Assembly: GCA_944383195.1 (NCBI GenBank)
Contig: CALWOP010000177.1
Coordinates: 58,390 to 122,389 of the forward strand
DNA: 64,000 bases
Direction: 5' to 3'
Source of the DNA: an uncultured Oscillospiraceae bacterium
GTDB taxonomy: Bacteria; Bacillota; Clostridia; Oscillospirales; Oscillospiraceae
Shown: positions 6,797 through 27,861 of the stretch, piece by piece
Layout: each line of letters opens with the position of its first letter
How positions within the stretch are numbered: the stretch's first letter is position 1
Notes under the pieces: generated by a model
What the model was told of the DNA's origin: nothing
Seen by the model: the letters and a program-made list of their open reading frames with translations, nothing else
Database searches by the model: none
Translations under genes and position numbers: made by a program

Positions 6797-6887
6797 ACTC
6801 CCTTAGCTTAATGGTAAAGCAGCGGGTTTATACCCCGTCGATCCAGATAAGATGCTGATCAGGGTTCGAGTCCCTGAGGGAGTACCA
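6797..6887 (+). tRNA. tRNA, type II (long variable arm, 91 nt), anticodon loop tttatac (nominal UAU); non-canonical
   Basis: Acceptor actccct/agggagt, D-arm gctt-aatggtaa-aagc, T-arm cagggttcgagtccctg, and 3' ACCA are all present. Confidence 0.6.
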
Positions 6888-6950
6888 GAGGCGTAATGCC
6901 GTTTGCCCTTGAAAGAGGTATCACAGTAAGACGCATACAGCAAACCTATT

Positions 6951-7025
6951 TCCAGAATAGTCAAATGGTTAAGACATTTCAATTAAAGTGAAAAATTATC
7001 GGTTCGAATCCGATTTCCGGAGCCA
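6951..7025 (+). tRNA. tRNA with anticodon UAA (Leu-type anticodon) but a type-I body (short variable arm), G73
   Basis: Anticodon stem tttca/tgaaa, loop attaaag, T-loop ttcgaat, CCA encoded. Confidence 0.65.
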
Positions 7026-7044
7026 ACTAGCGTCTTGAAAACAT

Positions 7045-7085
7045 TTGAAAAACTTTTATAAATATGATATAATATTTATAGAAAG
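7045..7085 (+). promoter_or_regulatory. sigma-A-type promoter (TTGAAA-N17-TGATATAAT + ATTTATAGAAAG)
   Basis: ttgaaa at 7045-7050 and tgatataat at 7065-7073; lies upstream of ORF 7098. Confidence 0.65.
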
Positions 7086-7097
7086 TAAGAAAGGAAG

Positions 7098-7304
7098 TTG
7101 CATATGGATAAGAAGTTATATCTCGCACAGCTTACGGCTGAGGCTATCTCTTGTTATCATAATGAAGACGCTATTTGTGATGCTCTTTGGCTTATGAATG
7201 GTGGTCTTGGAGGAGCCGAAGAAGAGTGGGAGAACTTTAATGCAACTTTCAAGGATGCCTTTGGAGTTACTTATGACGAGGCAAAGAAATTAAACCTGTT
7301 TTAA
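7098..7304 (+). CDS. hypothetical protein (68 aa)
   Basis: ORF directly after the promoter and an RBS aaggaag. Confidence 0.45.
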   Translation: MHMDKKLYLAQLTAEAISCYHNEDAICDALWLMNGGLGGAEEEWENFNATFKDAFGVTYDEAKKLNLF

Positions 7305-7435
7305 GCAAAAATTGAAAATCAAAATAAAATATGTTATAATATTTATATAAGGCGGTTTCAGCAATTCTCTTTGGAGGAATAAAACGCTTGTATTTGGGTT
7401 CAAGAAAGTTTATTTACATCCGCCTTGAAATATAT

Positions 7436-7512
7436 TGGTCGGTAGCTCAGTAGGTTAGAGCGCTCGCCTGTTAAGCGAGATGTCGTGGGTTCGAATCCCA
7501 CCCTTCCAGCCA
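7436..7512 (+). tRNA. tRNA-Asn (GUU)
   Basis: Anticodon loop ctgttaa; D-arm gctcagtaggttagagc; T-arm gtgggttcgaatcccac; CCA present; the acceptor stem has 2 mismatches. Confidence 0.7.
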
Positions 7513-7749
7513 GAGTCGATGTTTGAAAGAGTTCGTCGCGACTTTAACCCTAAACTTTCATTTAATATCGCTCTCCATTAAATCGGCGCGGGAGACTTGG
7601 ACAAGAGTAAGAGCAATCCCGAGGTCTTTACCTCTATTGGGCTTCTATCGACACATGACGCGCTAAATCATTCGTCAACTGCGAAATAAAATAAGAGGCT
7701 GGCCCATAGAGCAACGGGTAGTTCGGAAACAAATAGTTACTCTTTTATG

Positions 7750-7826
7750 TTCTCGTGGCGCAATTGGCAGACGCGCGTGGCTTAGAACCACGATGTTGCG
7801 AGTTCGAGTCTCGCCGAGAACACCAT
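7750..7826 (+). tRNA. tRNA with anticodon UAG (Leu-type) but a type-I body, A73
   Basis: Acceptor gttctcg/cgagaac; anticodon stem cgtgg/ccacg with loop cttagaa; T-arm gcgagttcgagtctcgc; CCA present. Confidence 0.65.
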
Positions 7827-7921
7827 ATATAGAGATAGAATAAGGTCGCTCCTTATTTGACAAGAGTAATGCTCCTCTTCTCTATATAATAATATTATTG
7901 AGCATAAAAAGGAGCATAAAA

Positions 7922-25315: not shown

Positions 25316-25642
25316 ATGAAAAACTGTTTAGATTGTTATAGATGTTGGGTTGTAAAAGACCCTGATCCGAAAGACGATACTTGTTTGGCTGCTTTTTGTA
25401 GCAAGTCTAAAACAAGAGGTATGAAGTGTAATGAGATTTCATACTTGATGCCTCTGGGATATAATTCTGCATTCGCGGAAAGCCCTCTCCCTGGCGACCC
25501 ATGGATTGCTGTTGCGGAACATTGGGATAGCCTTAGAGAGAAATCTAATATTCCAGATTGGTGTCCGGGTATGGAAGAAAATGGAGAATACAGTTTATTC
25601 ACCGATAGAACATCGGTTGATATTATGAAGGAACGACAGTAA
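25316..25642 (+). CDS. hypothetical Cys-rich protein (108 aa)
   Basis: ORF directly after the promoter. Confidence 0.45.
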   Translation: MKNCLDCYRCWVVKDPDPKDDTCLAAFCSKSKTRGMKCNEISYLMPLGYNSAFAESPLPGDPWIAVAEHWDSLREKSNIPDWCPGMEENGEYSLFTDRTSVDIMKERQ

Positions 25643-25731
25643 CTAAAAGACGCTTTCAGCAATCTATTTAAGAATATAAAAGTGTTTGATTTTTAATTCT
25701 TGCCATGATTTGGCGTCTTGAGAGTATATAT

Positions 25732-25805
25732 TCCGGCGTCGTTCAATGGCAGGACCGGGGATTCTAAATCCCTATATGAGAGTTCGAATCTCTCCGCCGG
25801 TGCCA
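25732..25805 (+). tRNA. amber-suppressor tRNA, anticodon CUA (25764-25766); U1.U72 mismatch, G73, A37
   Basis: A clean cloverleaf. Acceptor tccggcg/cgccggt; D-arm gtt-caatggcag-gac; anticodon stem gggga/tccct with loop ttCTAaa; variable region atat; T-arm gagagttcgaatctctc; G73; CCA encoded. Confidence 0.75.
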
Positions 25806-25824
25806 AATTATGAAAGGAGGAAAG

Positions 25825-26799
25825 ATGTTGCGAAAAGGATATATATATCTTATCACAAATAAGATAAATGGAAAACGGTATGTTGGGCAAACTAGTCGTG
25901 ACATCTGGACTCGTTTCGAAGAACATTGTTATGATGACCGTAGTACATCTGCTATTCATGCAGCTATTGAAAAATATGGAGTACAGAATTTCTCTTTAGA
26001 GCTAATTGAAGAGGTTGACTTAAATAAGCTGGATGAAAGAGAAAAGTTTTGGATAAAACACTATAATACTTGCAGTAAAGAAGGATACAATAAAACTTTT
26101 GGCGGAGCAGAAATTAATTTTAATGCCTATGATAGCGTTTTAATTCAAGAAAATGGTTTTATTGTAGATTCTTGCGAGAGATTAGCAGAAGATATTAGTA
26201 GACTTACCGATTGGTCTAAAGGATGGCTAGCTCATTACTTAAAAGAAATAACCGATAATCCTAATAAAGATTTTCTAGGGTATCATCTTGTTCATATCAA
26301 ACGGACAAGACCAGAAGATCAAACCGACATACTTGACTTAGAAAATTGGATAAAAACTCTAAATATTAAATTTCAAGGACAGCATATCTATTGTGAACAG
26401 TTAGATAAGCACTTTGAAACCGTAGGAGAAGCTGCGAAATACTTTGTTGACAATGACTTGTATCAAGGTAAATCAAAAATGCCAATTCAATCAATAATTA
26501 CTTCAATAGGTTATAATATCAATGGAAAAGTTAATAGTGTTGATTGCCTTGGTGGATTAAATTTTTATCGAGTACCGGGAACTAAAAAGCAAGAGGGGTC
26601 TGAAAATCCTTTTGCAAAGAAAAGGATTTATTGTCCAGAGCTCGATAAAGAATTTGAATCTGGGGTTGAAGCAGCTAACTATTTCATTGATAATAAGATT
26701 TGGACTGGCATTAAAGTAAAGACAGCCAAACTTCGTATTAGTGATGTAGTAAGAGGAGTTTTCCCTCAATATAAGGGTTATACTTTCAAAGCAGTATAA
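25825..26799 (+). CDS. GIY-YIG homing endonuclease (no TAG)
   Basis: GYIYLITNKINGKRYVGQTS...IWTRFEEH...YNKTFGG; RBS aaaggaggaaag. Confidence 0.75.
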   Translation: MLRKGYIYLITNKINGKRYVGQTSRDIWTRFEEHCYDDRSTSAIHAAIEKYGVQNFSLELIEEVDLNKLDEREKFWIKHYNTCSKEGYNKTFGGAEINFNAYDSVLIQENGFIVDSCERLAEDISRLTDWSKGWLAHYLKEITDNPNKDFLGYHLVHIKRTRPEDQTDILDLENWIKTLNIKFQGQHIYCEQLDKHFETVGEAAKYFVDNDLYQGKSKMPIQSIITSIGYNINGKVNSVDCLGGLNFYRVPGTKKQEGSENPFAKKRIYCPELDKEFESGVEAANYFIDNKIWTGIKVKTAKLRISDVVRGVFPQYKGYTFKAV

Positions 26800-26823
26800 T
26801 TCATATAATAAGGAGGTATTCGT

Positions 26824-27144
26824 ATGAGTAGGTCAAGAAAGAAAACGCCTGCTGTTTCTACCGGAACGTATAACGGTAGTAAAAGACGAGCAAATAAGAA
26901 AGTTAGACGCCTCCTTAAAAATCCCGATATGAGCTTTGACCATAAGTCTTTTAGAAAGGCTTATTGTTCATGGGATATTAGAGATTATAAAGAAGTTGCT
27001 CCATCATTTGAAATCTTCTCTGAAATATGGCTAGACAGATGGAGAAGAAATTCAGCAAGATTTCTTCCTAAGAATAAATGGGGCACCCCTCCGACGAGAA
27101 AACAGTTATGGGAAATGTATCAAAGATGCTATTTGCGGAAGTAA
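26824..27144 (+). CDS. hypothetical basic protein (106 aa)
   Basis: ORF with RBS aaggaggt. Confidence 0.45.
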   Translation: MSRSRKKTPAVSTGTYNGSKRRANKKVRRLLKNPDMSFDHKSFRKAYCSWDIRDYKEVAPSFEIFSEIWLDRWRRNSARFLPKNKWGTPPTRKQLWEMYQRCYLRK

Positions 27145-27185
27145 GAAACTTTTGCAATAACTTAAAAAATATTTTATAATATAAG
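27144..27185 (+). promoter_or_regulatory. sigma-A-type promoter driving a noncoding leader and the tRNAs at 27580 and 27775
   Basis: ttgcaa...tattttataatataag, followed by the ...CATACAGCAAAC motif. Confidence 0.5.
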
Positions 27186-27579
27186 TGTAAAAACCTTCCT
27201 TTCTTTCAAACATATAAATAATAAGGCTCATACAGCAAACTTTTATCGCCGATTATTCGGCTCCTTGGATATAAAATCAAATGTATGATTACTAATGTAC
27301 TCTAAGTATGATGCAATATTGCGAGCCTTGCAATTAAAACAATAGAGCATTAGAACAGAGTATCGCGCGGAAGAGCCATTATACAATGGACATAAGGCCA
27401 TTCTTCCGCGCATTTCTTTGCATCGGGAGTTGGCAATTTATGTGGCAAAATAATCTTGGGTTCTTAGATATGCTTTCTCTTATCTCATTTATTCTTTAGG
27501 TGTAGAACGCAGAAGGCTGTAAGTTAGATGAAATAAATAAAAAACTGGATATTTTAATTGCGGAAGTGGTTAAGTTAAA

Positions 27580-27656
27580 TGCTCGAGTGGGCTAATTGGT
27601 ATAGCCGTCAAGCTCAAACCTTGATGTTTGTGAGTTCGAGTCTCACCTCGAGTACC
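27580..27656 (+). tRNA. tRNA with anticodon CAA (Leu-type) but a type-I body, A73
   Basis: Acceptor gctcgag/ctcgagt; anticodon stem tcaag/cttga with loop ctcaaac; T-arm gtgagttcgagtctcac; CCA present. It resembles the tRNA at 7750. Confidence 0.65.
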
Positions 27657-27774
27657 ATTTCTTGCAAGAAACGGGAGCGTCCAGTGCCTCGTTAGCAGAT
27701 CTCTGGATGGTTGGCGCTGTGAAAGTTAAATGCGTCCGCGTGCAGAGCGAAGGATGGTCGATGCATAATTATAT

Positions 27775-27861
27775 GTGAACGTAGCCAAGTGGATTAAGGC
27801 CCCGGTCTGCAAAACCGCGTGACCCGAAAGGGCGTGAGTTCGAATCTCACCGTTCACTCCA
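27775..27861 (+). tRNA. tRNA with anticodon GCA (Cys-type) but a type-II-like long variable region (87 nt)
   Basis: Acceptor gtgaacg/cgttcac; anticodon loop ctgcaaa; variable region gtgacccgaaagggc; T-arm gtgagttcgaatctcac; CCA present. Confidence 0.6.

Follow-up and report, generated by a model that had tools for sequence, protein, structure and literature searches.

Introduction

It is a textbook rule that long variable arms are found only in leucine, serine and bacterial tyrosine tRNAs. In this study, we analyze six tRNA genes with unusual combinations of anticodon and body that lie in a 64,000-nucleotide (nt) stretch of DNA from an uncultured Oscillospiraceae bacterium (assembly GCA_944383195.1, contig CALWOP010000177.1, positions 58,390 to 122,389); this whole stretch is called the window hereafter, and genes are named after their first position in it. 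Exceptions to the rule are documented. Streptomyces coelicolor has a type-I tRNA-Leu(CAA), featuring a short variable loop as well as A73, which coexists with long-arm tRNA-Leu and is leucylated by the single bacterial leucyl-tRNA synthetase (LeuRS) of that organism (Fan et al., 2019, PMC6614811). Conversely, the selC* tRNA-Cys combines a GCA anticodon and U73 with a long variable arm, on a tRNA-Sec-like 8/4 branch with a longer anticodon stem and a link to selB*/cysS* (Mukai et al., 2017, PMC5389517). Allo-tRNAs (Mukai et al., 2017) and the nematode nev-tRNAs (Hamashima et al., 2012, PMC3333845) likewise have a long arm and an anticodon, often UAU, that contradicts the body; the former have 8/4 or 9/3 structures and tRNA-Sec-like D-arms, and the latter derive from tRNA-Leu. 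With regard to the anticodon itself, most bacteria have A34 in tRNA-Arg(ACG) only, some Firmicutes also in Leu(AAG) and Thr(AGU), and there the replacement of G34 by A34 in a four-codon box is linked to TadA; phage tRNA sets are said to lack the same anticodons that are missing in bacteria (PMC8007984).

We show that the six genes of the window represent several different phenomena and not one (Table 1). The explanation that we favor, and regard as reasonably probable, is that all six are real, folded tRNA genes under selection, that they belong to several classes, and that they are mostly ordinary working tRNAs; the synthetase that charges each of them, and the use of all of them in translation, are predictions made from sequence features. 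An uncultivated large phage, in which TAG is very probably read as a sense codon, has its tRNA array in this region.

Results

All six genes were recognized both by ARAGORN and by the Rfam model RF00005 (scores of 48-63 bits, with the gathering score at 29; E values of 3e-7 to 2e-11), and the two methods agree on loops, anticodons, variable-region lengths and discriminators, as these had been given in a preliminary description of the window. Automated folding, which that description had named as its own check, returned the short variable loops (4-5 nt) at 6951, 7749 and 27581 and the anticodons that it had read, and the anticodon and body combinations of the set are really non-textbook. Its coordinates were exact for four genes and shifted by one for the other two (7750-7826 should be 7749-7825, and 27580-27656 should be 27581-27657). 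All six genes encode CCA. Two of its statements on leucine need correction. The GAG isoacceptor was taken for the only long-armed tRNA-Leu, which overlooked the canonical tRNA-Leu(UAA) at 17256, and 6951 was grouped with 7749 and 27581, from which it is separated by G73, a GC content of 36%, a different D-arm and relatives of its own. The leucine tRNAs of the window are two with a long arm (GAG, UAA) and two without (UAG, CAA), and 6951 is separate.

Table 1. Positions in the window of the six atypical tRNA genes (first six rows) and of other tRNA genes of the array
Feature	Positions	Strand	Characteristics	Source
tRNA(UAU), nominal Ile (codon AUA)	6797..6887	+	91 nt; loop UUUAUAC; A73-CCA	ARAGORN; Rfam 63.3 bits
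Orphan type-I tRNA(UAA)	6951..7025	+	75 nt; loop AUUAAAG; 4-nt variable loop; G73-CCA	ARAGORN, Rfam
Type-I tRNA-Leu(UAG)	7749..7825	+	77 nt; loop CUUAGAA; 5-nt variable loop; A73-CCA	ARAGORN, Rfam
tRNA-Ser(AGA)	15271..15363	+	93 nt; loop CUAGAAA; G73; 5-bp variable stem	ARAGORN, Rfam
Type-I tRNA-Leu(CAA)	27581..27657	+	77 nt; A15-U48; A73-CCA	ARAGORN
Long-arm tRNA-Cys(GCA)	27775..27861	+	87 nt; 15-nt variable region, hairpin CCC-GAAA-GGG; U73-CCA	ARAGORN
tRNA-Leu(GAG)	8651..8735	+	canonical long arm	ARAGORN, Rfam
tRNA-Arg(ACG)	15191..15267	+	ordinary bacterial A34 tRNA; 3 nt upstream of tRNA-Ser(AGA)	ARAGORN
tRNA-Leu(UAA)	17256..17341	+	canonical long arm; 86 nt	ARAGORN
tRNA-Ser(UGA)	25183..25270	+	variable hairpin GGCCC-GCAA-GGGCC, resembling that of the long-arm tRNA-Cys	
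Amber suppressor tRNA(CUA)	25732..25805	+	Gln(CUG)-like body: U1, C2-G71, C3-G70, G73	ARAGORN

Between 6797 and 27861 ARAGORN finds 31 tRNA genes and one transfer-messenger RNA (tmRNA) gene, all on the + strand; Rfam backs 29 of these tRNAs and the tmRNA, and one further tRNA was added at 17083-17198. Megablast of positions 6000-28000 against GenBank phages gave short tRNA matches only, so that the phage has no close cultured relative at the DNA level. The AAA ATPase encoded at 17908-19038 shares 43% identity with proteins from Herelleviridae phages of Bacillus and is 44-67% identical to its counterparts in most of 52 IMG/VR loci, on contigs of up to 402 kb, and the order of the tRNA array is conserved (ARAGORN, 59 related loci). 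Among the sister phages we distinguish the closest group from group 2, whose ATPase is about 65% identical to that of the window.

Leucine identity in E. coli resides in A73, A14, the A15-U48 pair and G18G19, and variants without the long arm stay active (PMC9976931). The armless pair 7749 and 27581, with the variable loops AUGUU and UGUUU, holds this full E. coli-type LeuRS identity set, with G18G19 in a Leu-type D-arm. Therefore, no unusual identity rule is needed for these two tRNAs. The premise that bacterial LeuRS depends on type-II features does not hold for the enzymes studied. After orthologs, and with the anticodon and variable region masked, their nearest neighbors are mostly tRNA-Leu, long-arm forms included; 7749 is almost identical to the long-arm Leu(UAG) of L046 (one of the related loci, for which we use L numbers) from position 8 to position 43. 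Alignment A1, which comprises 22 distinct armless tRNA-Leu from the window, related IMG/VR phages, Cronobacter phage LPCS28 and Vibrio phage ValS_X1, is gapless, with U8, A14, A15, G18, G19, U48, the T-loop and A73 invariant; the pairing of its cloverleaf amounts to 98.4% of cells (shuffles, 63%), and compensatory change is seen in 18 of 20 pairs. The two window genes had been called clear paralogs, and they do share one design and A73, but with 55 of 78 aligned columns identical they are not close copies. In shared contexts (Asn, Leu(UAG), Leu(GAG), Asp; and Ser(UGA), Leu(CAA), Cys), the closest group has the short form at the array positions of Leu(UAG) and Leu(CAA), whereas group 2 has the long-arm form. 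As to origin, nearest neighbors mix short- and long-arm forms, and the tRNAs are too short to separate repeated arm loss from one old lineage.

The type-I tRNA-Leu of S. coelicolor resembles these genes in its leucine anticodon, short variable loop, A73 and coexistence with long-arm tRNA-Leu. The window genes differ in being phage-encoded and in having UAG as well as CAA, and since A73 is not an identity element in S. coelicolor, the rule may not transfer to them (PMC6614811). The same ungapped 74-column design is present in cultured T4-like and T5-like phages, namely Cronobacter phage LPCS28/S13 (Straboviridae) and Vibrio phage vB_ValS_X1 (Demerecviridae), which share with the window a 3-bp D-stem, an 11-nt D-loop of the type AAUUGGCAGA, a 5-nt variable loop, A15-U48 and A73-CCA; these phages belong to other families with other hosts, and their tRNAs are about 75-82% identical to those of the window over the matched part. 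In LPCS28 and ValS_X1 the design is annotated as a 77-nt tRNA-Leu; we found no discussion of it in the literature searched, and no paper describing armless tRNA-Leu in phages, which, given that open-access literature only was covered, is not proof of absence. A structural pattern scan of bacterial genomes gave more than 120 stretches, mostly from Actinomycetota and also on large contigs, and in each of the 80 pattern-bearing loci checked the pattern tRNA was called tRNA-Leu (73-77 nt). In two sets of loci, 27 of 95 and 43 of 96 distinct tRNA-Leu sequences from phages are armless (28%-45%).

It had been proposed that the armless tRNAs cover the leucine codons that the phage needs. This is not what codon usage indicates: the commonest leucine codons, CUU (33%) and UUA (31%), are readable by the long-arm tRNAs GAG (8651) and UAA (17256). 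For UUG (12%) and for CUA plus CUG (15%) no window tRNA other than 27581 and 7749 has a cognate anticodon. Judging from their identity nucleotides, 7749 and 27581 most probably receive leucine from the host LeuRS and would decode the minor codons CUA/CUG and UUG.

The main determinants of cysteinyl-tRNA synthetase (CysRS) are the GCA anticodon and U73 (PMC5389517), and both are present in the long-armed 27775, which has no G73. Its cloverleaf is 7/5, with G15:C48, a 3-bp D-stem and an 11-nt D-loop, and its variable stem has 3 bp, as against 5-7 bp in the serine tRNAs of the window. Both phage groups keep the gene at one and the same place in the array. The variable loop of the family is mostly of the GNRA type (GAAA, GCAA, GUAA; AAAA in one group), and the stem changes in a compensatory manner from CCC/GGG to CCU/AGG in L011/L014, for which a CCU/GGG intermediate exists; L019 has the acceptor stem and D-arm of 27775 without the variable arm. 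The best cultured-phage matches of 27775 are genuine tRNA-Ser(UGA) of Xanthomonas jumbo phages, and its variable hairpin resembles that of the tRNA-Ser(UGA) at 25183. For these reasons, 27775 could be either a serine tRNA remodelled to cysteine or a cysteine tRNA that acquired a Ser-like arm. It is most likely charged with cysteine, and would thus be a cysteine tRNA on a serine-like long-arm body.

Like the selC* tRNA-Cys, 27775 is a predicted cysteine tRNA with U73, a GCA anticodon (one of the two, GCA or UCA, that we looked for) and a long variable arm. In contrast to selC*, it is a plain 7/5 tRNA in a phage tRNA array: ARAGORN and Rfam both give a 7-bp acceptor stem and a 5-bp T-stem and not an 8/4 branch, and U8 is unable to pair with the C just before the 3' acceptor strand. 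Its neighbors are tRNA genes and small open reading frames (ORFs), and no ORF resembling an elongation factor or CysRS, of the kind that selB*/cysS* linkage entails, was seen among the ORFs of the window (translations read, Pfam on 20 ORFs). Long-arm tRNA-Cys is a widespread design in viral contigs. In an IMG/VR pattern scan, 114 of 120 among the matches listed were ARAGORN tRNA-Cys(GCA), at least 87 of them distinct and very diverse in sequence, and these 114 among the matches listed have U73-CCA and a variable region from about 11 nt upward. We found no paper describing a 7/5 long-arm tRNA-Cys in phages in the open-access literature, which is likewise short of proving absence. Variable regions of at least 10 nt also occur in other isotypes of the long-Cys locus set (Ile 12/45, Lys 7/47, Thr 7/49, Asn 6/28), and the cultured jumbo phage LucasX of Xanthomonas (MW825358) has a tRNA(UGU), nominally Thr, in which A73 is combined with a variable region of 10 nt and a type-II-like D-arm (L303:20-102).

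The tRNA at 6797 also folds as a 7/5 cloverleaf, with a variable region of about 21 nt that forms a hairpin, a 4-bp D-stem and a 7-nt D-loop. In the sister phages L003/L053, L054, L057 and L059 its position is occupied by a 76-nt short-arm tRNA(UAU); among close sisters the long variable region, with the common core CCAGAUWAG, is present only in the window and in L058. Isoleucyl-tRNA synthetase of the E. coli type relies on A35, U36, A37, A73, C4-G69, U12-A23 and C29-G41, and 6797 has all of these elements except the last, its 29-41 pair being G-C and not C-G. Most likely, 6797 is an AUA-reading isoleucine tRNA with an acquired arm insertion, which would have been gained in one sub-lineage. 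Neither 6797 nor 27775 has the structure of an allo-tRNA, both being 7/5 with ordinary D-arms and without a 12-bp 8/4 or 9/3 branch. The body of 6797 is not derived from tRNA-Leu, as judged from its D-stem and D-loop and from its neighbors after masking of the anticodon and variable region, which are Arg, Gln, Lys and Met tRNAs and the UAU tRNA of L058, with no Leu among them. Therefore, by structure it is an analogue of neither allo-tRNAs nor nev-tRNAs; unlike them, 6797 lacks a body of Leu or Ser type, and 27775 has cysteine determinants.

The anticodon apart, 15271 is a normal serine tRNA: it has G73, a variable stem within the range of at least 5 bp that we asked of tRNA-Ser and a Ser-type D-arm, and its nearest neighbors are all tRNA-Ser. 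The AGA anticodon recurs in 15 distinct orthologous sequences over 21 related loci, where GGA occurs once, whereas an unrelated phage set has GGA 8 times and AGA never. UCU is the commonest serine codon (44%), and the replacement of G34 by A34 would give a Watson-Crick match to it. The context in which TadA acts on tRNA-Arg is U33-A34-C35-G36, from which the 15271 loop departs at positions 35 and 36. However, a passage in PMC8266599 describes TadA enzymes that also modify tRNA-Leu, so the loop mismatch does not exclude modification; the deaminase motif [HC]AE...PCxxC was found in none of the six frames of the 64-kb window. As in the known bacterial A34 tRNAs, A34 stands for G34 in a four-codon box. 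It differs from them in the isotype, Ser(AGA) being unlisted for bacteria (PMC8007984), and in a loop that is not the UACG context of tRNA-Arg. Because its orthologs are conserved in the clade, absent from the unrelated set and unlisted in that survey, tRNA-Ser(AGA) is an uncommon, clade-specific trait.

The remaining gene, 6951, is not an armless tRNA-Leu, having G73, no Leu-type D-arm and no Leu neighbors. It has U1-A72, an A4-C69 mismatch, a perfect T-loop and an invariant D-arm AUAGUCAAAUGGUUAAGACAUU (form GUC-AAAUGGUUAA-GAC). In the family alignment A2, 95.5% of cells are paired, with compensatory change in 12 of 20 pairs. The 68 nt outside the anticodon loop are identical in 6951 and in L054, L057 and L059, whose surrounding DNA is about 80% identical; the probability of zero change over these 68 nt is about 3e-7. 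The anticodon loop is AUUAAAG in 6951, the 8-nt ACUCAAAG in L054 and AUUGAAA (anticodon UGA) in L058, and more distant D-arm relatives have ACA, GCA and CCU anticodons and often lack CCA. We could assign this tRNA to no isotype: at the acceptor end (U1-A72, C2-G71, C3-G70, G73) it is similar to the Gln(CUG) and suppressor tRNAs of the window, in the D-arm to the Cys and Glu tRNAs of the clade, and its anticodon is UAA. To our knowledge, no synthetase rule accepts a UAA anticodon on a body of this type. It is a structurally conserved tRNA of unassigned charging identity, and a non-translational role is a live option for it, alone among the six.

Discussion

On the explanation that we favor, the apparent anomalies of the window are mostly ordinary working tRNAs of under-described yet widespread designs. 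Several observations weigh against it. The leucine tRNA 7749 has A37 where CUN-reading leucine tRNAs usually have G37, which is the norm among them. The body of 6797 is without clear isoleucine neighbors when the anticodon and variable region are masked. The combination in 6951 of G73, no Leu D-arm and relatives that differ mainly in the anticodon loop is not the pattern of a plain elongator. In 27775, 71 of 90 columns (79%) aligned with the tRNA-Ser(UGA) of Xanthomonas phage XacN1 are identical, and a long arm with U73 has been considered compatible with seryl-tRNA synthetase (SerRS) in allo-tRNAs (Mukai et al., 2017). Moreover, E. coli LeuRS did not charge the type-I tRNA-Leu of S. coelicolor (PMC6614811), so acceptance of an armless tRNA-Leu is not universal among bacterial LeuRS.

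Given this identity to a genuine tRNA-Ser and the SerRS-compatible combination of long arm and U73, 27775 may be mischarged with serine, and an unusual charging rule may apply to 27775 and 6797. In a reading as deliberate dual or mis-acylation, SerRS would charge 27775, perhaps in addition to CysRS, and LeuRS or SerRS would charge 6797, in the manner of nev- and allo-tRNAs, with ambiguous or reassigned decoding of UGY/AUA, or the formation of cysteine on the tRNA from serine, as the outcome. The hairpin of 27775, so like that of the window's tRNA-Ser(UGA), would fit such charging, as would the A73, A14, A15 and U48 of 6797; the nev-tRNA(UAU) is charged with leucine only (PMC3333845), and UAU is frequent in allo-tRNAs. 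We nevertheless consider it quite improbable, in view of the two CysRS determinants, the 3-bp variable stem and the lack of G73 in 27775, the D-arm of 6797, which is unlike Leu or Ser D-arms, its lack of Leu or Ser neighbors, and the 7/5 structure of both; no gene resembling SelA, SepCysS or a synthetase turned up among the window ORFs (translations read; Pfam on 20 ORFs). If the preliminary description is followed in its idea of decoys, sponges for host anticodon nucleases or tRNA-like regulators, some of these RNAs would act outside translation, where they would bind or absorb such nucleases or other factors. For the set this seems improbable, since five of the six, which keep CCA, identity nucleotides and compensatory changes, lend it no support: 7749, 27581, 27775 and 15271 have complete identity sets, stand at fixed array positions and are the sole window tRNAs with cognate anticodons for their codons, and A73, A15-U48 and U73 would be needless in a decoy. 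It is 6951 that remains a candidate, on account of a body 100% conserved within diverged flanks, an anticodon loop that varies among relatives and distant members often without CCA, although U1-A72, G73-CCA and a perfect T-loop are retained; the RNA-repair-type genes of the window would also fit. That the genes are prediction artefacts or decaying pseudogenes is very unlikely and largely refuted already. The low GC content and A4-C69 mismatch of 6951, and a variable insert that 6797 has in common with one sister locus only, could be read in that way, but ARAGORN and Rfam agree as independent methods, covariation is strong in the Leu and 6951 families, orthologs are conserved in phages whose AAA ATPase is only 44-67% identical, and CCA is encoded throughout.

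It is also conceivable, although rather unlikely in our opinion, that the architectures are an anti-defence redesign, in which the tRNAs work in translation and the loss of the arm (Leu) or its gain (the Cys and UAU tRNAs and, in sister phages, the suppressor) alters their shape, so that host tRNA-cleaving nucleases, or a phage nuclease that destroys host tRNAs, no longer recognize them. This is compatible with the explanation that we favor and concerns why the architectures exist. Genes of RNA-repair type, located in 33836-34627, 38364-39647 and 45324-47151 (Pfam), suggest pressure from RNA-cleaving defences; they include an RNA ligase (PF09414, 38364-39647), an AAA_33 kinase (46082-46600), two metallophosphoesterases and a weak RlaP-like nucleotidyltransferase. 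It has been proposed that anticodon-loop changes let phage tRNAs evade tRNA-targeting defences (PMC10264068), and with these genes such sequence-based escape makes escape by shape change plausible by analogy. Arm gain and loss recur over many unrelated phage lineages, and the A37 of 7749 in place of G37 points the same way. On the other hand, variable arms are not mentioned in PMC10264068, no variable-arm-reading nuclease was identified in this analysis, and bacterial genomes, too, commonly have armless tRNA-Leu on large contigs, so that no phage-specific reason is needed. We also considered tRNA-dependent DNA modification (PMC13219725), which has no bearing on these tRNAs.

A bolder proposal, which we regard as a long shot, is that large phages uncouple the variable arm from amino-acid identity on purpose, with 27775-type tRNAs as dual-substrate or Ser-to-Cys tRNAs, or with the arm as a handle for a phage factor or a means of nuclease escape, and with the 6951 family as non-translational bait. 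If true, purposeful uncoupling of the arm, or bait in the form of 6951, would add a further, new level at which phages control decoding. As the window and its relatives make plain, the long-arm rule is broken both ways, and often, in phage tRNA arrays, and tRNA-Ser(AGA), whose anticodon is said to be missing from bacterial and phage sets, is in use in one phage clade. For annotation, this means that isotype calls in phages can be wrong. These tRNAs provide natural tests of the elements that LeuRS, CysRS and SerRS truly need, and they are candidate orthogonal tRNA scaffolds for engineering.

Additional features of the window

The GC content of the window is about 36% (range about 31-42%), and all genes are on the + strand. 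In-frame TAG is frequent, with 10 in the GIY-YIG gene 7922-8647 and further examples in the ORFs 37211-38398 and 59194-60105; counts reach 10-16 in some ORFs and are 0 in many others. TAG is taken as a sense codon because of these in-frame TAGs together with the suppressor tRNA(CUA) at 25732; the amino acid would be glutamine, as suggested by the body of that tRNA only. In group 2 the suppressor tRNA has a long variable arm with a conserved YUCUGARG motif. Group 2 (L007-L019, e.g. L008:9902) also has a conserved tRNA of 74 nt, with G73-CCA and an anticodon loop of 8 nt, GUUAAAAG, which ARAGORN reports as '???(taaa)' and which is flanked by two Met(CAU) genes; L006 has GUUAGAAG instead. In the window, ARAGORN calls tRNA-Met(CAU) at 10331-10404, without encoded CCA, and at 19066-19141; both have irregular D-arms and lie below the Rfam gathering score, and such calls recur in relatives at the same array positions.

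The added gene at 17083-17198 (+) scores 51.2 bits with the Rfam tRNA model and is tRNA-like: its acceptor, D and T arms are canonical, and an insert of roughly 54 nt, with two predicted hairpins, takes the place of the anticodon arm. It is absent from the default ARAGORN run, and the intron mode makes it Lys(CUU) with a 41-nt intron. Both sister-phage groups keep it, at 91% and about 72% identity, and hairpin 1 has changed in a compensatory manner; its 3' end is ACCG in the window and GCCA in group 2. We considered a Y-RNA (YrlA-like) that would be the partner of a DUF2828 protein; a permissive Rfam search returned the tRNA model only. The DUF2828/DUF7788 gene of the window adjoins a gene whose 809-aa product has shoulder and repeat domains of Major Vault Protein (28878-33215). 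The tmRNA (14323-14637; Rfam 108 bits) encodes the tag peptide DNAYFENHLAA, and sister phages keep a tmRNA with variant tags.

A 40-55-nt AT-rich element of the form TTGAAAA...TATAAT lies at 6590-6646, 6671-6713, 7043-7098, 7309-7352 and 8952-9000, in intergenic positions near the small ORFs and first tRNA genes of the array. Sister loci repeat the element too, and it looks like a reiterated promoter. Finally, translations read by eye in 40498-45087 include nicotinamidase-, phosphoribosyltransferase-, nicotinamide phosphoribosyltransferase- and NAD synthetase-like ORFs, a possible NAD salvage block, and a YqeY (GatB-like) domain protein is encoded at 41841-42290.

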